A DNA stretch of 24,000 nucleotides, from assembly GCF_001543245.1 (NCBI RefSeq), contig NZ_CP014163.1, positions 950,387 through 974,386 on the forward strand. The letters are read 5' to 3'. Origin of the DNA: Aerococcus urinaehominis (GTDB lineage: Bacteria; Bacillota; Bacilli; Lactobacillales; Aerococcaceae). Below, piece after piece: positions 7,696 to 21,088 of the stretch. Position 1 is the first letter of the stretch; every line of letters starts with the position of its first letter. A program made the position numbers and the translations under genes. Under the pieces are notes generated by a model, which worked only from the letters and a program-made list of their open reading frames with translations, was not told where the DNA came from and did no database searches.

Positions 7696-8000
7696 AGCAA
7701 ATTTGCTAGTGTTTGCCCAAGTCGATCACGGTAAACGCTTAAATATAAATCAAAAGAACAAGCTTAGTATTTTAGCAATCTTACAGCCCCCTATATATAT
7801 AAATGATCTGGTTGAGTCACTTTAAAATATGACTATTTCGACTATGATCAAAAAAACACTAATTTTGGTTAAAATTACAGCATCACTTGACTAAAAATCT
7901 TCCTGAAAGACTGCTAATCATTAGGGGATTAATCACCCTTTCCTAATTCGAGATGAAGAACGGCTGATTGAAGAAAGACCGCGCCTTGTTGCTTACAATA

Positions 8001-8029
8001 TTGATAAAATAAATTTGTAATCGATTACT
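8001..8029 (+). promoter_or_regulatory. Putative promoter/operator of bacteriocin module 1; contains the 12-bp perfect palindrome GTAATCGATTAC (8017-8028)
   Basis: TTGATA (8001-8006), a 17-nt spacer, then ATTACT (8024-8029). The 14-nt string TGTAATCGATTACT is identical to 12155-12168, although the flanking spacer sequence differs. Confidence 0.35.
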
Positions 8030-8113
8030 TCAAGTTGAATCACTAATGTTACCATTTATTTTAAGGACTTGTTAGCCTTGCTAGTATGTTATACCTAGAA
8101 AGGAGTGGGTAGT

Positions 8114-8473
8114 GTGCAAGAAGCAGCAAAATATATGCGAATCTATGTATGGATGCGATCATTTATCAACCTAATTGGCATAACGAGCTTTGCTTGGGAC
8201 ATCTTTCTAGTAGCTGCTGTCGATTTATTCACTAACTACGACGATTTCCACCAAAAATTGCACGAAAATAAAAGTTTAATCTACGCCTTTAGCCAATTTA
8301 TCTGGCGTGGCTACGTTTTTTTAACCGGACTAGGCATGTTTACCAAGTTACTAAGAACAGGCCAGTTAATTTGGCAAGCAAGCGATGTCCTGTATGAACT
8401 TGGCTTTGTTGCGGTCCTAAGTTTACCTTTTACTATAATCATCTATATCGCCATTAGAAGGGGAGATATCTAA
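8114..8473 (+). CDS. 119-aa polytopic membrane protein, putative bacteriocin immunity protein (paralog A)
   Basis: Track ORF 8105..8473 trimmed to the GTG at 8114. AGGAG lies 8 nt upstream, and the length then matches the paralog at 12485. It has three to four hydrophobic segments. Its stop overlaps the next start (ATCTAATG). By eye it is roughly 60 percent identical to the 12485 product. Confidence 0.6.
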   Translation: MQEAAKYMRIYVWMRSFINLIGITSFAWDIFLVAAVDLFTNYDDFHQKLHENKSLIYAFSQFIWRGYVFLTGLGMFTKLLRTGQLIWQASDVLYELGFVAVLSLPFTIIIYIAIRRGDI

Positions 8474-8670
8474 TGAAAATCTTACATGAAACATCTATTA
8501 ATGAGGGGTTACTACTGCAAATTAAAGGCGGTGGTAAGCGAACTGATATTGCAGCTGGTATATTACATGGCGCTGCTGCTGGTTTTAAAGTTTGTCCCGC
8601 CGGCTATAAGACTGCTTGTGCTGTAGCTATTGGCGCAGCGGGAGCAGCTTATAGCGCTTGGGGAAATTAG
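8473..8670 (+). CDS. Double-glycine-leader class II bacteriocin precursor, LafX-like Gly/Ala-rich peptide (beta-1; 65 aa)
   Basis: Leader and mature peptide: MKILHETSINEGLLLQIKGG|GKRTDIAAGILHGAAAGFKVCPAGYKTACAVAIGAAGAAYSAWGN. Hydrophobic residues occupy -4, -7 and -12. The mature peptide has 2 Cys and GxxxG/AxxxA motifs. A GGGGAG Shine-Dalgarno lies inside the upstream gene. Confidence 0.85.
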   Translation: MKILHETSINEGLLLQIKGGGKRTDIAAGILHGAAAGFKVCPAGYKTACAVAIGAAGAAYSAWGN

Positions 8671-8959: not shown

Positions 8960-9583
8960 CTATGCCTGCACAGCTTGCCTGTAAAGAGCTATCATTTTTT
9001 CCTGATAGCTACGATAACTGGCAACCATTAGCGGGCTGGTTACGACAGTGGCTAGCAGCATAAAACATAGTAAAGGGGTCAGGCTAGCACCTGCTACACC
9101 TGGCTGGCGTAAAGGAGCTAGGAAAATCGGGTAGCCCAATAACAACATAGCTAGTTGCAGACCTGCAATTTTAAAAGAGCAAGTCAAACGGTAGCCACAT
9201 ATTTGCCAACGGTGACCCTTGGCTAGCTGCTGACTCTCTGCCAGTAATTTTCGTGAGCCACTGTCAGACCTATCCATCAACAGGTATGGCGCTAGGCTAT
9301 AATCCAATGACTTGATCACGCCAGGAACCACCAATAGTAATGACCATAAGCCCACTTTCACACAGGTAACTAGTTGTAGAAAGACGAAGCGACTTAGGTA
9401 ACTGGTAGGCTCCTGCCTAGAACCAGCAAACAACCGCCATAAACCAAGCGCCAAGACTAACTGTGCCAAAATATTAGCTAGTAGCCCCCAAAACTCATAG
9501 AAGCTCGTTAAGTAGACATTAGCCATTAAAAGTATTAGTAAATAGATCGCCAATAAACGGTTGGTTGTTAAAGTGAGTTTCAT
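8960..9583 (-). CDS. 207-aa polytopic membrane protein, DUF975-like; candidate immunity or partner protein for the upstream GG peptide
   Basis: Track ORF 8960..9667 trimmed to the ATG at 9583, with AGGAG 8 nt upstream. It has five to six hydrophobic segments. The segment VIKSLDYSLAPYLLMDRSDSGSRKLLAESQQLAKGHRWQ resembles the DUF975 core as I remember it, which has not been verified. Confidence 0.55.
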   Translation of the reverse strand: MKLTLTTNRLLAIYLLILLMANVYLTSFYEFWGLLANILAQLVLALGLWRLFAGSRQEPTSYLSRFVFLQLVTCVKVGLWSLLLVVPGVIKSLDYSLAPYLLMDRSDSGSRKLLAESQQLAKGHRWQICGYRLTCSFKIAGLQLAMLLLGYPIFLAPLRQPGVAGASLTPLLCFMLLATVVTSPLMVASYRSYQEKMIALYRQAVQA

Positions 9584-9611
9584 TTTCAAAGCTCCTATTT
9601 CTCTTAAATTT

Positions 9612-9788
9612 TTATTGGTAAACCTGAGCTGGACAATAAACGGCTGGGAATTTAATGCTTTGGGCAATTTCGGGCCTCATCTTACCGCTAGCAACTAAGT
9701 CAGCTATCCGAGCTTGCTGAGCCCTAATATTGGCACATAGATTGCCACCACGAACTAGTCCTAGCTGACGATTATCGAGCTTATTCAT
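9612..9788 (-). CDS. Double-glycine-leader peptide precursor (58 aa) with a hydrophilic, two-cysteine 43-aa mature part
   Basis: Track ORF 9612..9878 trimmed to the ATG at 9788, preceded by AGGAGGTGAT. The start overlaps the ABC stop by 8 nt (ATGAATAA). Sequence: MNKLDNRQLGLVRGG|NLCANIRAQQARIADLVASGKMRPEIAQSIKFPAVYCPAQVYQ. The leader has L-12, L-7 and V-4. Confidence 0.75.
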   Translation of the reverse strand: MNKLDNRQLGLVRGGNLCANIRAQQARIADLVASGKMRPEIAQSIKFPAVYCPAQVYQ

Positions 9789-11949
9789 CTGAATCACCTC
9801 CTGTCTGGTCTTGGCCATACATGGCCTGATAAAGTTCAGACTGCTGTAATAGAGTTTGCTGGTCACCGTCACCAACAATCCGTCCCTGGTCTAATAAAAT
9901 CACCCGGTCAAATTGGGCAACCAAGGGTAGATGATGGGCAATAAAAATAATGGTCTTGTCTAAAGAAAGTAAGTAACTAACCACCTGCTTTTCTAGGATG
10001 GGATCCATGGCACTAGTCGCCTCATCTAAGATATAAATATCTGCATCCCGTAACAAGGCACGAGCTAGGACAATCCTTTGTTTTTGCCCACCTGATAAGT
10101 TTTGACCCCCTTCTTCGAGCGGTTGGTCTAGCCCCAGCGAATGACTCAGGGCAAAATCTCTTAAGTCCAACTGATTCATGACATATTCAATGCGGCCGAA
10201 GCTAATCTGGTCCTCTTGGTCCAAGACCAAGTTATTATACAAACTCCCCTTTATAATAAAATTATCCTGGGGCAGGTAATAAATTCGCTCGCGAAGCGAT
10301 TGAATTTTCAAATCATTAATAGCAAGGTCCTCAAAACAGATTTGACCAGTTTGGGGACGATGGAGGGCAACTAGGAGTTTGGCCAGGCTAGACTTACCAG
10401 ACCCGCTAGGCCCTACCAAGGCTACTTTTTGCCCATAAGGGATGGTTAAATTAATATCTTCTAAGGTAATTTGATTAATATTATAGGCGAAGGACAGTTG
10501 GCAGATACTGATCTCCTTCTTCAAGTTATTCGTATAAATCCCATACTGGTTGCTTGCATACTCACTGTCAATTTCCAGGACCTCATTTAAACGCTGGTTG
10601 GCAACACCAGCTTCCTGGAGACTAGCTTGAAGCTTGAAAATATTTTGCAAGGGACCAGTAAAATAAACAACTAGGGCATTGTAAGTGATTAATTGCCCCA
10701 AAGTCAGCTGGCCTTGCATCACCAGATAAGCGCCATACCACAAGGTCAGGCTAGTTGTTAACAAACCAACCAATTCTTTGATACTTTCTTGCTTAATCTC
10801 TAAAACAGCTGTAATGAGCGCATCCCGCATGGTAACTAAAAACTGAAATCTTACTGCCTGCTTAGCAGCAGTCGTATAGTTATTGGTTTTTAGGCTCTCG
10901 ATTCCTTGTAAGTATTCAATAATCTTAGCGTTCAATTGACTTTGACTGGACATTTCTTCTCTGTTGGCCTGATCGAGTGGCTTAACAAATCGGTAGATGG
11001 CCAAGAAATAAAAAGGCAAAGAGAGTAAAGTTAATAAAAATAAAAAGCCATTTTGCCAGGCTAGTGTTAACCCAACAATAACCGCCATCCCAACATCTAA
11101 AACCAGGGTGATAGATGCTGAGCCTAGAGCATTGACAATTTTATTGGCATCTAAGAAGCGAGAGATAATGTCACCGGCCTGGCGGTTAGTAAAAAAATCT
11201 AAGGGTAGGTCTAAAACATGGTTAAAATAATCTAACATAATTGTTTGGCTCATCTCTTGACCCAAAATTACCAATAATTTGCTCCGAATGTATTTAAAAA
11301 TGACCATGGCCAAGTAGGCAGCTAATAAACCTAGAGAAAAAACATTTAGCCAGTGATAGTTGTTCCGAGGAATTAATTGGTCAATCAGTACTTGAAAATA
11401 AAAAGAAGACCCAATGCTAATAGCGATGACCACTATTGAAGCCAAAATAATTTTAGCCAGCAGGATTTTATTATCCATAATCAGTGAGAAAAACTGTGAT
11501 AGCCCTTTACTTTTATGAACTTGGATTTGATAATTTTCTCCTGGCGTCGGAATCAAGAGGACACCCGTCCAAATACTTGCAAAGTCAGCCAAGCTCATCT
11601 GTATTTTAGCTTCAGCCGGATCAGCAATTAACAGTTGGTCACCCTCTAGACCATAGACAACTAGGTAATGGAGTTGGTCACCTTCTTTAATGACATGGGC
11701 GATGGCCGGGAAGGACATGTCCGGATCTTGCCAAACAGTATTATCAGCCTCAACTGCCAAACAATCAAAGCCATAGCCCTCTAAGGCTATTTTCAGACCA
11801 TAGGCAGAAGTCCCCTGCTTATCTGTACCTGATTCTCGTCTTAACCGGTGTAAGGGCACCTGGCTGCCGTAATGGGCTAGGACCATGGCCAAACAGGCAA
11901 CACCACAATCACTCTGGTCCTGTTGGGCAATAAATTTAAATTTAGCCAT
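9781..11949 (-). CDS. Bacteriocin-processing ABC transporter with N-terminal C39 peptidase domain (722 aa; ComA/LagD/BlpA type)
   Basis: C39 catalytic Cys context QDQSDCGVACLAMVLAHYG and His context HYLVVYG. It has a six-TM ABC domain, Walker A GPSGSGKSS, signature LSGGQKQR and Walker B IYILDEATSAMD. GGGGGAG lies 6 nt before the ATG. Confidence 0.95.
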   Translation of the reverse strand: MAKFKFIAQQDQSDCGVACLAMVLAHYGSQVPLHRLRRESGTDKQGTSAYGLKIALEGYGFDCLAVEADNTVWQDPDMSFPAIAHVIKEGDQLHYLVVYGLEGDQLLIADPAEAKIQMSLADFASIWTGVLLIPTPGENYQIQVHKSKGLSQFFSLIMDNKILLAKIILASIVVIAISIGSSFYFQVLIDQLIPRNNYHWLNVFSLGLLAAYLAMVIFKYIRSKLLVILGQEMSQTIMLDYFNHVLDLPLDFFTNRQAGDIISRFLDANKIVNALGSASITLVLDVGMAVIVGLTLAWQNGFLFLLTLLSLPFYFLAIYRFVKPLDQANREEMSSQSQLNAKIIEYLQGIESLKTNNYTTAAKQAVRFQFLVTMRDALITAVLEIKQESIKELVGLLTTSLTLWYGAYLVMQGQLTLGQLITYNALVVYFTGPLQNIFKLQASLQEAGVANQRLNEVLEIDSEYASNQYGIYTNNLKKEISICQLSFAYNINQITLEDINLTIPYGQKVALVGPSGSGKSSLAKLLVALHRPQTGQICFEDLAINDLKIQSLRERIYYLPQDNFIIKGSLYNNLVLDQEDQISFGRIEYVMNQLDLRDFALSHSLGLDQPLEEGGQNLSGGQKQRIVLARALLRDADIYILDEATSAMDPILEKQVVSYLLSLDKTIIFIAHHLPLVAQFDRVILLDQGRIVGDGDQQTLLQQSELYQAMYGQDQTGGDSDE

Positions 11950-11985: not shown

Positions 11986-12050
11986 ATTCTATCTATTTAA
12001 AAACAAAACTGTGATAATCCTTCCTAAACTGCTATTAATTTTTCATGAAT
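11986..12050 (-). promoter_or_regulatory. Candidate regulated promoter of the ABC operon with paired direct repeats
   Basis: Minus strand reads ATTCATGA (12050..12043), 13 nt, GTTTAGGA (12029..12022), 30 nt, then TAGAAT (11991..11986). The repeat starts are 21 bp apart, the same layout as at 16827-16890. Confidence 0.4.
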
Positions 12051-12139
12051 CGAACAGCATAGTATATTTAACTAACTTATTCACAGTTTAAGAAGAAAAA
12101 AAGTAATTTAATGAAGGTTTTTTCTAAGAACTTAAAATC

Positions 12140-12168
12140 TTGTTATACTAAAGATGTAATCGATTACT
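12140..12168 (+). promoter_or_regulatory. Putative promoter/operator of bacteriocin module 3; contains the palindrome GTAATCGATTAC (12156-12167)
   Basis: TTGTTA (12140-12145), a 17-nt spacer, then ATTACT (12163-12168). The geometry and palindrome match 8001-8029. Confidence 0.35.
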
Positions 12169-12235: not shown

Positions 12236-12454
12236 ATGAATTTTACAAAATTAGAAGATCAATCACTAAAATCAATTCGAGCCGGCCATAATAAGTGGCA
12301 GCAATTAGGAGAGGTGACTAAAGGAATGGTTGAGGTTGGTGCTGGTGGTGCAGCTTTAGGTAGTGTAGTCTGTGGACCTGGTTGTGCCGTTCTAGGTGGT
12401 TTAGCAGGTGTCGCTGTAGGTGGCGCCACAGGTGCCTTAGATGCCCAAAATTAA
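12236..12454 (+). CDS. AG-leader class IIb-type bacteriocin precursor, LafA/GatA-like (alpha; 72 aa)
   Basis: Sequence: MNFTKLEDQSLKSIRAG|HNKWQQLGEVTKGMVEVGAGGAALGSVVCGPGCAVLGGLAGVAVGGATGALDAQN. The leader has L-12, L-7 and I-4. The mature N-terminus xNxWQ and the VCGPGCAV motif recall lactacin F LafA (RNNWQTN...ICGPACAV) as I remember it. AAGGAGG lies 8 nt upstream. Confidence 0.85.
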   Translation: MNFTKLEDQSLKSIRAGHNKWQQLGEVTKGMVEVGAGGAALGSVVCGPGCAVLGGLAGVAVGGATGALDAQN

Positions 12455-12484
12455 AAAATTAAATTTTAAAAGGAGGTTGGCCCT

Positions 12485-12844
12485 ATGACAAAAGCAGCAA
12501 AATATATGCGTATCTATGTCTGGATTAGATTGTTGATCAACCTGCTAGGCATAACGAGCTTTGCTTGGGATATCCTTCTAGTAGCTGCTGTCCACTTATT
12601 TACCAGCTACAAAGATTTCCACAAAATTTTTCAAGCAAACAAAAACATGACCTATTTCTTCAGCCAAGCAATCTGGCGTGGCTATGTTGATTTAACTGGA
12701 GTAGCTATGCTTATCAGATTATTACAATCAGGTCAACTGTCCTGGCAAGCCAGTGATATTATTTATAACTTTGGTGGTATTATTTTGTTAAGTTTAATTT
12801 GTACTGGAATTACTTATATAGCTGTTAGAAGGGGAGATATCTAA
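12485..12844 (+). CDS. 119-aa polytopic membrane protein, putative immunity protein (paralog B)
   Basis: AGGAGG lies 8 nt upstream. It is a paralog of 8114..8473, sharing AAKYMRIYVW, ITSFAWDI, LVAAV, IWRGYV, SWQASD and RRGDI. Its stop overlaps the next ATG (TAATG). Confidence 0.65.
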   Translation: MTKAAKYMRIYVWIRLLINLLGITSFAWDILLVAAVHLFTSYKDFHKIFQANKNMTYFFSQAIWRGYVDLTGVAMLIRLLQSGQLSWQASDIIYNFGGIILLSLICTGITYIAVRRGDI

Positions 12845-13038
12845 TGAAAATTTTACATGAAAAAACTATTAAAGCAGAAAGACTACTAAAAATAAAAGGC
12901 GGTGGTAAGCGCACTGATGTGGCATCTAATATGCTGTCGTGGGCTGCAGCTGGCTACCGCATTTGTCCCGCCTATAAACCGGTCTGTGCCGTAGTTGGAG
13001 GAGCAGCCGGTGCAGCTTATGGCGCCTGGGGTAATTAA
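12844..13038 (+). CDS. Double-glycine-leader bacteriocin precursor (beta-2; 64 aa), paralog of 8473..8670
   Basis: Sequence: MKILHEKTIKAERLLKIKGG|GKRTDVASNMLSWAAAGYRICPAYKPVCAVVGGAAGAAYGAWGN. By eye it is roughly 70 percent identical to beta-1. Confidence 0.85.
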   Translation: MKILHEKTIKAERLLKIKGGGKRTDVASNMLSWAAAGYRICPAYKPVCAVVGGAAGAAYGAWGN

Positions 13039-13054
13039 TAATAAGTAAACAACA

Positions 13055-13094
13055 TAAAAAAACTTCGCTGAGCAACTCGCTAGCGAAGTTTTTT
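13055..13094. terminator. Bidirectional terminator between the convergent beta-2 and response regulator genes
   Basis: The stem CTTCGCT/AGCGAAG pairs 13063-13069 with 13082-13088. It is flanked by an A-run (13055-13062) and a T-run (13089-13094). Confidence 0.65.
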
Positions 13095-13848
13095 ATGTCT
13101 TATGTTTAGCTAATACAAATTTTTCTAACGCCACTTTCTTGCTGGCTGAGAAGGGTAATTGGTCACCATTATCAAGCGTGAGCAATCGCTTGTCACCATC
13201 AACCAAACGAATTTTATCGGGATTGATTAGGGTGCTACGACTAATACCAAATAAGTCTTGGGGATATTCCCTTTGGTAGGCTTTAATTTTGCCATAGAAC
13301 TGATAATGCCCGGTCTCTGTCACCAGTTCCAAACGGTGGGGCAGCGATGAGATCTGGATATAAATCACCTCATCAATTAAAAATCGATAGACTTTGTTGC
13401 CTATTTTAAAAGAAATCATAGGATCCTCTTGATTTGAAACGCTATTTTCTTGGTCCGTGATCAAATTTAAACACTGGAAAATTTCTTGACGCATCACCTC
13501 TTTATCACCCTTTTCAACTAGGGCAAAGGGTTCTACCTTGCGCTTCAAGACCATAGGAGCATATTTAGTATGGCTGGTAATAAAAATAATTTTACCAAAG
13601 GGATCTATCTGGCGAATCGCTGTTGCTAAATCAATGCCATTGGTGTCAAGGTTGCCTAATTCAATATCTAGAAAATAAACACCCAGTCTCACTTGATCTG
13701 CCTGAATCTGATTAAATAAGTCAGCTGGATCTGGACTGAAGCCCCCCATTTTATAAGCATGGTTATGAAAAAGGACATAATCTTTAATGATATCAGTAAT
13801 ATCTAGTAGCTGGATAGAATTATCGTCACAAATATAGATTGAGTGCAT
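13093..13848 (-). CDS. LytTR-family response regulator (251 aa; AgrA/ComE/PlnC type)
   Basis: The receiver domain has the phospho-acceptor context VYFLDIEL. The C-terminal LytTR domain reads ISFKIGNKVYRFLIDEVIYIQ...FGISRSTLINPDKI. TAGGAGG lies 5 nt upstream. Confidence 0.9.
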   Translation of the reverse strand: MHSIYICDDNSIQLLDITDIIKDYVLFHNHAYKMGGFSPDPADLFNQIQADQVRLGVYFLDIELGNLDTNGIDLATAIRQIDPFGKIIFITSHTKYAPMVLKRKVEPFALVEKGDKEVMRQEIFQCLNLITDQENSVSNQEDPMISFKIGNKVYRFLIDEVIYIQISSLPHRLELVTETGHYQFYGKIKAYQREYPQDLFGISRSTLINPDKIRLVDGDKRLLTLDNGDQLPFSASKKVALEKFVLAKHKT

Positions 13849-15112
13849 AAAAACCTCCTAAGGGGCTGTGATAATCAATTGAACAGAAAAAGTGTTAGCT
13901 TGATTTTCAAGATGTATAAAAAGATTAGGATATTTCTTGGCGATACGCCGCAAATTAGACAAACCCAAACCCGTATGATTGGCTTTACTAGAAAAGCCCT
14001 TAATTTGAATTTTTTCTAAATCAATCGCTTGATTTAAAGAGTTTTCAATATAAATTTCAATTTGATTGCCTTCTAAATAAAACAAGATATTGATTTGACG
14101 AGCCTGGTTCTGATCAGCTACCGCCTCAAGCGCATTGTCTAATAAAATTCCTAGAATACGAATCAGGTCATAGTCAGCAAGATAAAAATCCTGTATATTA
14201 TGCGGACATTCAAAATAAACCAAGACTCCCTTGTCTGCAATCAAATAGAATTTTTCTAGTAGCAGGGCTTTTACATAAGGATTTTTTACCTTAGTAAGAT
14301 CTAAAATTTTATCATTTTTGATATCTAACTCTCTTTTTGAGTAGCTATCCAAGCCTGCTACAAATTCTAATAAATCATCTATACGATTATCATTCAAAAG
14401 AGATTTAACAGTAGTCAATAGATTCTTATAATCATGCCTAAAGGCCCTTATTTTATCTTGGCTTGCTTCTAGTTGGTCTACATATTTAGCCATATTATCT
14501 AGTCGAGCCTCCATTAACTTATGCTCGTATTCTCTCCTGTTATTTTGCAAGATAACAAATACAAACACTGCCACAACTATAATCTGCAAAACAAAAAAAT
14601 AGAAAGACTCCTGTACCCGATTTTGAGAACCTGCACTCGTAGGAAGTATAATATTATTGTAGAACCCAAGTATGTTCAGCAAAGCGAATATACTATAATT
14701 AACCAGAGGAAGTAGCGGATTTTTAAAATATGGCGAATTGATGTATCGCTTTGTCACAACTAAAGTCAAAATACACACTAGCAAACTAGGGATTAATCGC
14801 TTCAAGTAGTCAAAAAATATTATTTGCGAAACATCCTCTATTGCTTGACTCATCAAATAATTTCCTGCCACATAATCAAAGCATTCCAAAATAAATTGTG
14901 GCATTAGTGTAGCAAAAATGATCTGTGATGACTCCCTTTTTTTGAATTATATAAAAAGAAAAGGAATATGGCATAGAGAATATCGATTAAATTTACGGTA
15001 TTAAAAGGCAATAAATTGAGTAGTGAATTAAGAAAAATAAAAGGATATATGCTTACTAGGCCAATTCCAATTTTTCTTAATTTAAAATCATCTAACAGGT
15101 AAGCTGTTCCCA

Positions 15113-15120
15113 AACATCTA
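15113..15120. repeat. Target-site duplication, left copy (AACATCTA; possibly 9 bp with the A at 15112)
   Basis: Identical to 16446-16453 and immediately flanks the IS inverted repeats. Confidence 0.8.
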
Positions 15121-16445
15121 GATTAAGTCCATATAATTGTGTAAAAAGAAAAACCATAATAATCTTTTTTGGTTACAATGTAATTGGCTAAAACACATTG
15201 AAAGGAAGATTATTATGGCTCAACTAAATATTACCCTAAACTTAGAAGAAATTACAGAGGCAGTTCTAAACAGTGATATGGATCAGATGATGAAGTCCCT
15301 AACTGTAACCATCTTTAATGCCTATATGCAAGCAGAGCGTGAGGAATTTATTAATGCTAAGCGCTATGAGCGCACAGATGACCGGAAAGATTATCGTAAT
15401 GGCTCCTATAAAAGAAACTTTAAAACAAAGGTAGGGACTGTTGAACTGGATGTCCCTCGGACACGATCAGGAGAATTTGATACCAAGCTATTCGATAAAT
15501 ATCAACGTATGGACAAGGCCTTTGTGGCTGTTTTAACCGAAATGTATATTAATGGGGTCTCAACACGCCGTATTAAGAAGGTTGTTGAAACACTCTGTGG
15601 CGAAGGTGTTTCTAAATCATTTGTCTCTTCAGTAAATAAAAACTTGGACCCTGCTGTTTTCGAATTTAAAGGGCGTTCCCTAACACATACGAATTTTCGA
15701 TATGTTTATGTCGATGCCATGTATATTAAAGTTCGCGAAAACCATCGTTCTGTCTCTAAAGGTGTTTATATTGCTCAGGGTATTAACGATGATAATCGTC
15801 GCGAAATTATCGGCTTTATGATTGCTGATAATGAATCAGAAGAAAACTGGAAGAACTTCTTCCTTGATTTAAAGGCCAGAGGCCTAACTAAACCAACATT
15901 AATTATATCTGACGCCCACAAGGGACTAAAATCAGCGATTAGTAATCAATTTTTAGGCACTACCTGGCAACGGTGTACGGTTCATTTTCTACGTAATATT
16001 TTAGCTCATTTTCCAAAAAAGGATTGCAGTCATGAGAGAAGTCTTCTAAAGAGAATATTTAATGCTGATAGTCAACAAAGAGCGCGAGAGTTAAAATTTG
16101 AATTTGTAGAATACGTTAGTGGCAATGAGAAATATGACAAAGCTGTTAATACGCTAGAGGAAGGCTTCGAAGATGCTATCCCATACTTATTAGAACCCAC
16201 ACCTTATCGCGTTTCACTGAAAACAACTAACAGTCTAGAAAGGCTAAATCGAGAAATTAGAAGAAGAGAGAAAGTTGTCGGCCTCTTTCCTAATATAGAG
16301 GCTGCGGAGCGACTTATAGGAAGTGTATTGCTTGATTTGCATGAATATTGGGAGACATGTCCTCATAAATTCTTTAATAACATAGTCTAAATATTTATAC
16401 CCACCAATTACATTCTATAATTTACACAAGATTGTGGACTTGACA
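15121..16445 (+). mobile_element. IS256-family insertion sequence (about 1.3 kb)
   Basis: Imperfect terminal inverted repeats: left gattAAGTCCAtataaTTGTGTAAA (15121-15145), against the right-end reverse complement tgtcAAGTCCAcaatcTTGTGTAAA (16445-16421). It has a single transposase ORF and a perfect 8-9 bp direct repeat of the target. Confidence 0.85.
15215..16390 (+). CDS. IS256-family (mutator-type) DDE transposase (391 aa)
   Basis: Track ORF 15137..16390 trimmed to the ATG at 15215 (GAAAGGAAG upstream). MAQLNITLNLEE...YERTDDRKDYRNGSYKRNFKTKVGTVELDVPRTRSGEF...VYVDAMYIKVRE...ISDAHKGL...WQRCTVHFLRN is a typical IS256-family sequence. Confidence 0.9.
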   Translation: MAQLNITLNLEEITEAVLNSDMDQMMKSLTVTIFNAYMQAEREEFINAKRYERTDDRKDYRNGSYKRNFKTKVGTVELDVPRTRSGEFDTKLFDKYQRMDKAFVAVLTEMYINGVSTRRIKKVVETLCGEGVSKSFVSSVNKNLDPAVFEFKGRSLTHTNFRYVYVDAMYIKVRENHRSVSKGVYIAQGINDDNRREIIGFMIADNESEENWKNFFLDLKARGLTKPTLIISDAHKGLKSAISNQFLGTTWQRCTVHFLRNILAHFPKKDCSHERSLLKRIFNADSQQRARELKFEFVEYVSGNEKYDKAVNTLEEGFEDAIPYLLEPTPYRVSLKTTNSLERLNREIRRREKVVGLFPNIEAAERLIGSVLLDLHEYWETCPHKFFNNIV

Positions 16446-16453
16446 AACATCTA
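16446..16453. repeat. Target-site duplication, right copy (AACATCTA)
   Basis: Identical to 15113-15120. Confidence 0.8.
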
Positions 16454-16511
16454 AAAGCAAAAACGGCTACTATTCTTAATAAAAAGGCCCAAAGTGTCAT
16501 ATCTATACTAC

Positions 16512-16640
16512 TTATTTGATACGGCATTGTCTTAATAGATTAAAAATCAGCGCACAATTTTTTTCTTTAGAATTAGCCTGGTTATAGTTGAAAACGCCAC
16601 CTTTAATTAATTTAAGTTGATTAATTGCTATTTTTTTCAA
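16512..16640 (-). CDS. Putative inducer-peptide (pheromone) precursor with double-glycine leader (42 aa, TTG start)
   Basis: Not in the ORF track. AAGGAG (16654..16649) lies 8 nt before the TTG at 16640. Sequence: MKKIAINQLKLIKGG|VFNYNQANSKEKNCALIFNLLRQCRIK. The 3' end overlaps the kinase start (16527) by 16 nt, which is the classic IP-HK-RR gene order. Confidence 0.7.
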   Translation of the reverse strand: MKKIAINQLKLIKGGVFNYNQANSKEKNCALIFNLLRQCRIK

Positions 16641-16813
16641 AATAAACACTCCTTTAATATTTAAAATTCTGCACTAAAAATTCATTTCAATGGCACGATA
16701 GTATATAATACTCACTTCTTACTAGATATATATTAATTGTCAAAAAAATATTTAGCTACTCAATCATCTTATCAGTAAATGAGTACTACTTTATAGCCCC
16801 CCCCTCACAAACC

Positions 16814-16890
16814 ATTCAAGAGATAAATTCAAGAACTAAATACTTGCATTCAGGAAACATTCTCCCTTCTCTCAATATAGTTGTTATAAT
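16814..16890 (+). promoter_or_regulatory. Candidate LytTR-regulated promoter: three ATTCA(A/G)GA direct repeats plus an extended -10
   Basis: ATTCAAGA occurs at 16814-16821 and 16827-16834, and ATTCAGGA at 16848-16855. The last two starts are 21 bp apart. TGTTATAAT lies at 16882-16890, 37 nt after the last repeat start. No good -35 is present. Confidence 0.5.
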
Positions 16891-16933: not shown

Positions 16934-17106
16934 ATGCAAAATGATAAGTCATTACCTGATGAGTGGTTAAAAAAGTCCGTGGTGGTTCCAATGATTACAT
17001 CTGGACCCAAATAGGTCGGCATGCTGGTAATTTTATGAATTGTATGGACAAGCCTGTTAGCACCGACCCCTTCGTTTCTGCCGGTTACTGTATTGGTCCA
17101 AAATGA
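16934..17106 (+). pseudogene. Frameshifted double-glycine-leader bacteriocin precursor
   Basis: Not in the track. GAAAGGAG lies 7 nt before the ATG at 16934. As written, the frame stops after 26 codons. Adding one A to the A6 run (16969-16974) gives MQNDKSLPDEWLKKVRGG|SNDYIWTQIGRHAGNFMNCMDKPVSTDPFVSAGYCIGPK, with L-12, L-7 and V-4, ending at 17106. Confidence 0.6.
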
Positions 17107-17528: not shown

Positions 17529-17532
17529 TTAA

Positions 17533-17560
17533 AGTAGCCCGCAACCGGGCTACTTTTATA
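17533..17560 (+). terminator. Rho-independent terminator
   Basis: The 9-bp stem AGTAGCCCG/CGGGCTACT pairs 17533-17541 with 17546-17554. The loop is caac, followed by TTTTATATTTT. Confidence 0.7.
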
Positions 17561-17598: not shown

Positions 17599-17715
17599 TC
17601 AGGCACAAATTTTACCATAACAGGCCCGCAACCAATCCCAGGCTTTCTTTAGGTCCTGAACGCCTCCAAAGCCCGCTTTAACTTGTCTGAGCTCTTGATT
17701 AGATAAAGTTTTCAT
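17599..17715 (-). CDS. Orphan AG-leader peptide precursor (38 aa)
   Basis: Not in the track. AAAGGAGGGGG lies upstream of the ATG at 17715. Sequence: MKTLSNQELRQVKAG|FGGVQDLKKAWDWLRACYGKICA. The leader matches the LSxxELxxVxxG consensus exactly apart from Ala at -2. The mature 23-mer ends in C-x5-C-A. Confidence 0.65.
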   Translation of the reverse strand: MKTLSNQELRQVKAGFGGVQDLKKAWDWLRACYGKICA

Positions 17716-17841
17716 CAACTTCCCCCTCCTTTAATTGTATATACAATTCCATAATAAACCAAGTCTGTTTTAACTCTGATTAGTCTTCTTAAATCTGCTT
17801 TTTTTATTCCTGAACGAAAACTGTTGGTATCATTAGCTAAC

Positions 17842-20822: not shown

Positions 20823-21088
20823 AAAAAAAGCCCCTTTACTGGAGACCAGTAAAAGGACGACGTATCGTGTTACCACCTTTAGTTCAGAAGCCAAAGCTTC
20901 CCTCAAACCAACCGCCAAACGATTGGCGCTGATTTTAACGGTTCAGCTACCGGCCCAGCCTCATATCGACTAGACAACCTCCAAGACCATCTTCAGCTAA
21001 TCACCATCTCATTTCTTTCACCAACCGAAATGTCTCTAAAATAGGTCCTTAACTTACTCTTCTTTTCATAGGTATGCTTCATTTGATT
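20823..21088 (-). promoter_or_regulatory. T-box riboswitch leader with intrinsic terminator, upstream of metQ-M20-metQ
   Basis: Minus-strand elements, in order: AGTA and AGAGA (Stem I elements), the distal-loop GGTGAAAG, the F-box CCGTTA (20941..20936), the T-box sequence AAAGGTGGTAACACG (20880..20866), then a 12-bp terminator stem (CCTTTTACTGG/CCAGTAAAGGGG) plus T7 (20857..20823). The candidate specifier is GAU-AUG-A at 20964..20962 (Met). This is not securely folded. Confidence 0.8.

Follow-up and report, generated by a model that had tools for sequence, protein, structure and literature searches.

The 24,000 nucleotides of Aerococcus urinaehominis DNA analysed here (in the following, the window) contain a bacteriocin island in which a short open reading frame precedes a disrupted kinase gene. 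This raises the question whether the frame is a real gene and, if so, whether its product, here called peptide A, is the peptide that the kinase was meant to sense. In our assessment, the frame is likely to be a real, uncalled gene for the GG-leader pheromone precursor of a three-component quorum-sensing system that belongs to the island. A literature search yielded neither a description of this locus nor one of bacteriocin quorum sensing in Aerococcus. The case is of value for annotation, since short genes for GG-leader pheromones are routinely missed, which makes quorum-sensing circuits look incomplete.

The anatomy of the frame had been outlined in an earlier note on this DNA without indication of the strand; both its length and its TTG start (codon at 16640-16638) behind an AAGGAG motif were reproduced on the minus strand (Table 1). 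The deduced product consists of the leader MKKIAINQLKLIKGG followed by the mature part VFNYNQANSKEKNCALIFNLLRQCRIK. As the note had described, the leader is of the GG type, with a double-glycine end and hydrophobic residues at -12, -7 and -4 (I, L and I), and recomputation confirmed a cationic mature peptide of 27 residues with two Cys residues nine apart: five K/R stand against one D/E, which gives a computed charge of +4, a pI of 9.7 and a mass of about 3229 Da. The two Cys residues enclose the loop CALIFNLLRQC (C-x9-C), which is followed by a short RIK tail. The end of the frame overlaps the kinase gene by 16 nt, counted to the kinase ATG at 16527-16525, in line with the note. This ATG is preferred over a further Met codon at 16500 because the kinase N-terminus can be aligned from there to those of related kinases ('ISSIDMTLW' in the island against 'IIDTKAYLL' in the relatives).

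TTG is a minority start codon, which counts against the pheromone interpretation. Nevertheless, it is supported as the start of peptide A by the closest homologue, which begins with ATG and reads MKKL... An in-frame GTG at 16649, from which the longer frame in the list of open reading frames begins, is an unlikely start, as it would place the start codon inside the Shine-Dalgarno sequence of peptide A. The frame is indeed unannotated, as the note had stated: it is called in neither of the two available assemblies, the gene calls of the second one skipping it, and the exact sequence, in its 42- or 45-residue form, is absent from a collection of 15 billion proteins. In the region of the peptide A gene, a scan for RNA structures revealed nothing unusual and a scan against Rfam gave no match.

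Table 1. Positions of the discussed features within the 24,000-nt window.
Feature	Position	Strand	Remarks
Peptide A ORF (inducer-peptide candidate)	16512..16640	minus	42 codons, TTG start, TAA stop
Shine-Dalgarno AAGGAG of peptide A	16649..16654	minus	8-nt spacer to TTG
Peptide A leader codons	16640-16596	minus	MKKIAINQLKLIKGG; 15 residues
Peptide A mature 27-mer codons	16595-16515	minus	TAA at 16514-16512
HPK10-type kinase, first 27 codons up to IS insertion point	16446..16527	minus	
IS256-family insertion sequence, 1325 bp	15121..16445	plus	Transposase_mut ORF 15137-16390
Remaining kinase, two frames (15112-14907; 14904-13858)	13858..15112	minus	GHKL catalytic domain in last fragment
LytTR-type response regulator (AgrA-like)	13093..13848	minus	intact
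C39-peptidase ABC exporter, 722 aa	9781..11949	minus	Peptidase_C39, ABC_membrane and ABC_tran domains; catalytic QSDCG present
Peptide C, 58 aa	9612..9788	minus	GG leader MNKLDNRQLGLVRGG; start overlaps exporter gene end
Peptide B	17599..17715	minus	MKTLSNQELRQVKAG / FGGVQDLKKAWDWLRACYGKICA; monocistronic; then hairpin 17531-17556
Predicted box, 8105-8670 membrane-protein/bacteriocin module	7946..7975	plus	ATTCGAGAT-N12-ATTGAAGAA, 29 nt, TAAAAT
Predicted box, ABC exporter operon	12021..12050	minus	ATTCATGAA-N12-GTTTAGGAA, 29 nt, TAGAAT
Predicted box, 12236-13038 bacteriocin/immunity operon	12086..12115	plus	GTTTAAGAA-N12-TTTAATGAA, 28 nt, TATACT
Predicted box, 16934/17131 bacteriocin operon	16814..16890	plus	ATTCAAGAG (16814-16822), ATTCAAGAA-N12-ATTCAGGAA (16827-16856), 28 nt, TATAAT
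Predicted box, peptide B	17786..17815	minus	GTTCAGGAA-N12-ATTTAAGAA, 29 nt, TATTAT

The claim that the receptor is broken holds twice over. An IS256-family element has entered the kinase gene, flanked by an 8-bp target duplication (AACATCTA at 15113-15120 and 16446-16453) and leaving a kinase reading frame that is unbroken across the insertion point, and a second lesion is given by a frameshift at an A7 run (14937-14943). The second assembly is 100% identical and includes both lesions, which therefore are no assembly errors; the locus is accordingly known from one strain only. In spite of the damage, the kinase type is recognizable from matches to HATPase_c_5 (1e-15) and to the AgrC model (8e-29). 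Altogether, the genome features 13 full-length, approximately 100% identical copies of the IS256-family element including the one in the kinase gene (e.g., G000:C1 146483, 401360, 628397 and 1757915), which indicates a recent transposition burst, and what remains of one end of the IS, a short palindrome, is found at about 1651639-1651702 (G000:C1). Besides, the genome contains a second, intact kinase of the HPK10 type (440 aa; G000:C1:1197796-1199118, minus strand), which is 27% identical to the island kinase and is accompanied by neither an adjoining LytTR regulator nor a GG peptide within the 6 kb inspected. A housekeeping gene of the genome, 78-79% identical to those of A. viridans and Aerococcus sp., assigns it to Aerococcus.

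The remaining parts of a three-component system are present. Next to the co-oriented GG-leader frame at the disrupted AgrC/HPK10-type kinase, there are a LytTR regulator (4.9e-15 for LytTR, 7.7e-30 for the AgrA model; a scan of genome contigs with the regulator as query gave no match) and a C39 ABC transporter, which is presumed to process and export all GG-leader peptides of the island. The operon of the latter (8960-11949, minus strand) comprises, behind the exporter gene, the gene of a 58-aa GG peptide, coupled to it in translation, and that of a DUF975 membrane protein, and no accessory protein of the ComB/LcnD type was found in it. In addition, several GG-leader bacteriocin/immunity modules belong to the island. 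From these components, the following sequence of events can be proposed for the peptide A gene. The precursor would be translated from the TTG start, cut after Gly15 by the C39 exporter and released as a cationic peptide of 27 residues, which may form a disulfide loop between Cys14 and Cys24. In the ancestral, intact state, the kinase, whose gene follows directly downstream, would sense this peptide through its membrane domain and phosphorylate the LytTR regulator, and the regulator would bind to the boxes of five island promoters and thus switch on the exporter and the bacteriocin/immunity operons. In the strain at hand, the insertion sequence and the frameshift in the kinase gene leave this loop open. 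Given the box-dependent promoter of the exporter and the dead kinase, export can be expected to be basal at best. The suggestion of the earlier note that neighbours may still receive a signal from the strain is without support, as a search of 5.8 billion proteins revealed no organism with a receptor that is both matching and intact.

The five island promoters exhibit one common layout, in which a copy of [A/G]TT[C/T]A[A/G/T]GAA is followed by 12 nt, a second copy, 28-29 nt and a -10 hexamer; chance alone would not be expected to give this exact pattern of two copies. The operon of peptide A, kinase and regulator is an exception, as no box in sense orientation was found before it. The only box within the 490-nt divergent region is that of the 16934/17131 bacteriocin operon, which points away from the peptide A gene. 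The best pair on the sense strand before peptide A, at -217, is merely the reverse reading of this divergent box, which read backwards reaches the 98th percentile of the background but is misplaced relative to any -10 region. Likewise, nothing convincing emerged when the sequence before peptide A was searched for sigma-70 promoters and for degenerate boxes. In contrast, the inducer operons of the relatives carry (A/G)TTCAGGAA repeat boxes about 95-65 nt before the start of the peptide. The missing box is the main anatomical oddity of the pheromone interpretation, and the gene therefore probably is not autoinduced here. A precedent for weak autoinduction is known from Streptococcus gallolyticus, where the inducer gene gsp depends only weakly on the regulator (PMC8545106). 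The stretch at 16650-16830 (minus strand) further features a run of eight G (about 16799-16806) and TACTCA/TGAGTA inverted repeats.

The assignment of peptide A draws support from the position it occupies. An orthologous kinase was not found in the databases, the next relative after the identical copy being only 39% identical, and the search for a second strain or an intact orthologue merely returned the other, identical assembly. The best matches (36-39% identical) stem from Enterococcus cecorum, E. columbae, Companilactobacillus futsaii, Vagococcus fluvialis and others. For several of these nearest kinases and for loci from species-representative genomes, the slot upstream of the kinase was compared, and every locus examined (kinases 32-39% identical) featured a gene for a GG-leader peptide with a Cys loop in this slot, most of these peptides belonging to the curated EntF family of induction factors. 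The slot peptides of the nearest kinases comprise 36-49 residues with a GG leader and C-x7-C at the end, e.g., ...VVGG followed by TNTKGKAASNLAQCLFSFFRKC or ...INGG followed by ENFNFMGKNGSELEKCVFSLFKKC. They reach 36-53 bits with the NCBIfam model NF033383 ('EntF family bacteriocin induction factor'; cut-off 35), and the slot peptides of relatives match Pfam DUF5841 as well. The scores are lower at two loci of another Aerococcus species, with only 23 and 12 bits for NF033383. A comparison of the sensor fragments of the island kinase with the sensor domains of the relatives, with regard to co-variation of peptide and receptor, gave no significant similarity.

The closest counterpart of peptide A was found in a Lactobacillales genus of two species. 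In one of them (locus L118, genome G144), the peptide MKKLTTKQLKNILGG / QYHRNDDSWTKLKYLFNLMRNC, ending with ...LFNLMRNC, is encoded by a complete frame with a strong Shine-Dalgarno sequence 13 nt upstream of a gene for a 441-aa kinase, which is 32% identical to the island kinase over its catalytic half. This peptide is 41% identical to peptide A, with which it has the leader pattern MKK..xQLKxIxGG and the end [IL]FNL[LM]R[QN]C in common. The slot peptide of the sister species (L124, genome G100) ends with ...RCLFNLRKNC, which widens the common end to [IL]FNL[LM/R][RK][QN]C. Still, there are differences to peptide A with its 42 residues: the peptides of L118 and L124 comprise 37 residues without any tail behind the last Cys, only a single Cys is present in one of them, a regulator box belongs to their operon, and the kinases next to them are undamaged. 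About 5 kb away, both species feature a second pair of peptide and kinase genes (L127 of G144 and L128 of G100), the peptides of which end with ...TCIISLFKKC, i.e., a loop of the EntF type. The leaders of the paralogues L118/L127 and L124/L128 are nearly identical and their mature ends differ (LFNL[MR][RK]NC versus CIISLFKKC), which makes them a naturally occurring example of pheromones that diverged in specificity after duplication. A graded series leads from the EntF motif to peptide A, namely CIISLFKKC, CLFNLRKNC and CALIFNLLRQC with the intermediates RCLFNLRKNC and YLFNLMRNC, and could serve to study the drift of peptide-receptor specificity.

Similarity searches alone gave no significant homologue of peptide A. 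The sole match in NCBIfam is NF033383, with 16 bits (E 0.011; 13.7 bits in the genome scan) against the cut-off of 35 and mostly covering the leader, and this failure of the curated models counts against the pheromone interpretation. No match was obtained with Pfam PF19159 (DUF5841) even at E 10, the genome scan with DUF5841 being negative as well, nor with the ComC and BlpC models (Pfam PF03047; NCBIfam NF033215) at E up to 10. A word-based search of 5.8 billion proteins gave no homologue and a HMMER search of 1.84 billion representatives no credible one; a lone HMMER match of 42 bits, extending over seven stretches of a 1312-aa protein, was judged spurious. The genus-wide six-frame search returned nothing. 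The order-wide one gave nine weak matches, which is about the number expected by chance, and L118 was the sole match in an open frame beside a kinase, the others being interrupted by stops or located inside other genes and hence discarded.

Profiles built from positional relatives led to different ranks. With a first profile of nine relatives, peptide A ranked only 342nd in the genome, a further point against the pheromone interpretation. With a profile of 11 positional inducer peptides, from which peptide A itself was left out, it came out on top (13.8 bits, E 0.09) of the 34,950 segments obtained from the genome in six frames. On the basis of these sequence comparisons, the homology of peptide A to the EntF/CbnS type is read as distant and transitive, i.e., peptide A appears as a far outlier and not as a family member by curated thresholds. 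Neither the curated score nor the C-x7-C loop of the EntF family is found in peptide A, and the slot upstream of an HPK10/LytTR pair is. Peptide A and its relatives in another genus would extend the EntF/CbnS inducer type beyond the reach of the curated models. The proposal of the earlier note that peptide A is the autoinducer of a three-component system stands with regard to position, size, leader and context, whereas no curated model was passed and no box precedes the operon; the assignment is made because of position, leader and the distant, transitive resemblance.

Peptides of the EntF/CbnS type are characterized by a GG leader, a basic mature peptide and a hydrophobic loop bounded by Cys residues near the C-terminus. 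Peptide A resembles them in these features, with mature peptides of 22-27 residues, in the location of its gene directly upstream and on the same strand of genes for an HPK10 kinase and a LytTR regulator, and in the (A/G)TTCAGGAA type of regulator boxes in the island. The respective gene orders are entF-entK-entR in Enterococcus faecium and cbnS-cbnK-cbnR in Carnobacterium (PMC2040187). Differences concern the loop, which with C-x9-C is two residues longer than the C-x7-C of the family (C[VIL][FL]S[LF]F[KR][KN]C), the RIK tail of three residues and the lack of a box before the operon. The note had named PlnA and SppIP as models, which lack a Cys loop and to which no sequence relation of peptide A was detected. 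The similarity to the plnABCD and sppIP-K-R systems lies in the logic of an inducer-kinase-regulator operon, in a C39 ABC transporter that processes the GG leader and in promoters with direct repeats (PMC3546714). In the GSP-BlpH-BlpR system of S. gallolyticus, a GG-leader peptide acts via a kinase and a LytTR regulator on a bacteriocin regulon with a conserved promoter motif (PMC8545106). The island has a gene for a GG-leader peptide presumed to be secreted, the kinase with a LytTR regulator and the use of a conserved promoter motif in common with it; nevertheless, peptide family, DNA motif and gene arrangement differ, and the S. gallolyticus system comprises an additional repressor consisting of LytTR only.

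The most serious rival for the role of the cognate pheromone is peptide B with its mature 23-mer, in which case peptide A would be left as a relic, or would serve as a second signal or a minor bacteriocin. Peptide B features a textbook leader close to the consensus (LSNQELRQVKAG), a strong Shine-Dalgarno sequence and a box of its own with the 9-12-9-29 spacing to the -10 region that is found in other island promoters; it would therefore be autoinduced, and its leader and promoter are a point against the assignment of the role to peptide A. Moreover, the gene is monocistronic and lacks an immunity gene, and inducer genes apart from the kinase/regulator operon are known, e.g., avcF in E. avium (PMC3546714). 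Still, the inducer gene is located directly upstream of the kinase gene in every related locus examined. No inducer model recognizes peptide B, and 401 Lactobacillales genomes contained no relative; peptide B ranked 21st without significance (7 bits) with the nine-member profile and fell outside the top 12 with the 11-member profile that placed peptide A first. On this evidence, peptide B is unlikely to be the cognate pheromone, and peptide A probably would be the ligand of the kinase. Peptide C could be another rival, though a weaker one, or a bacteriocin. With its coupling to the exporter gene and the DUF975 membrane protein following, it looks more like a bacteriocin.

A further possibility assigns a signalling role to both peptides A and B. 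Peptide A might found a distinct inducer subclass, defined by the C-x9-C loop and the basic tail and uncoupled from autoinduction, so that it would be a constitutive low-level signal which the strain cannot sense, and peptide B would be a second, separately regulated signal. This possibility is distinctly improbable; if true, the island would have two candidate pheromones and be an example from nature of a 'vocal but deaf' state.

Returning to peptide A as the pheromone precursor of the island, it has to be asked whether the frame is translated at all. It is short, starts with TTG, is not called by any annotation, has no significant homologue in the databases and no detectable promoter, all of which would fit a chance open frame in the AT-rich leader region of the kinase gene. 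The frequency of such frames was estimated by a genome filter that accepted frames of 30-90 codons only if they began with a start codon behind a Shine-Dalgarno sequence and encoded a leader of the GG type, hydrophobic at positions -12, -7 and -4. In the genome of 1.83 Mb, both strands included, nine distinct frames passed, seven of them (peptide A included) within the island and only two elsewhere; the matches with a strict GG were all located in the island (4/4). With a background of two matches per 3.7 Mb of strand, a chance match within the pre-kinase slot of about 130 nt would be very unlikely. In addition, the first rank of peptide A with the positional-inducer profile and a homologue in the same slot, with which it has the leader as well as the C-terminal motif in common, argue against a chance frame, which is accordingly considered very unlikely. 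Equally improbable is a function of the exported peptide A as a small cationic bacteriocin of class II instead of a signal: although a 27-mer that is cationic, amphiphilic and made with a GG leader would suit this function in a bacteriocin island and some inducer peptides, such as PlnA, show antimicrobial activity as well, the gene is followed not by an immunity gene but, with the overlap mentioned, by that of the kinase, and both size and position are those of the inducers of all relatives.

Apart from peptide A, the state of the island itself deserves attention. A GG-leader bacteriocin gene at 16934-17106 (plus strand; MQNDKSLPDEWLKK / VRGG-SNDYIW...) is split over two frames at an A6 run, which is the second homopolymer frameshift of the island beside the A7 run of the kinase. 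With the kinase hit twice and one bacteriocin gene frameshifted, the island is decaying, and the immediate functional consequence for this strain is probably small. A palindrome, TGTAATCGATTACT, occurs at 8016-8029 and again at 12155-12168, in both cases just downstream of the -10 region in the box promoters of the 8105 and 12236 operons, and may serve as the operator of a second regulator. Flanking the island, genes for an NlpA/MetQ-type lipoprotein and an M20 peptidase are preceded by a T-box leader (20850-21078, minus strand; Rfam RF00230, 106 bits).
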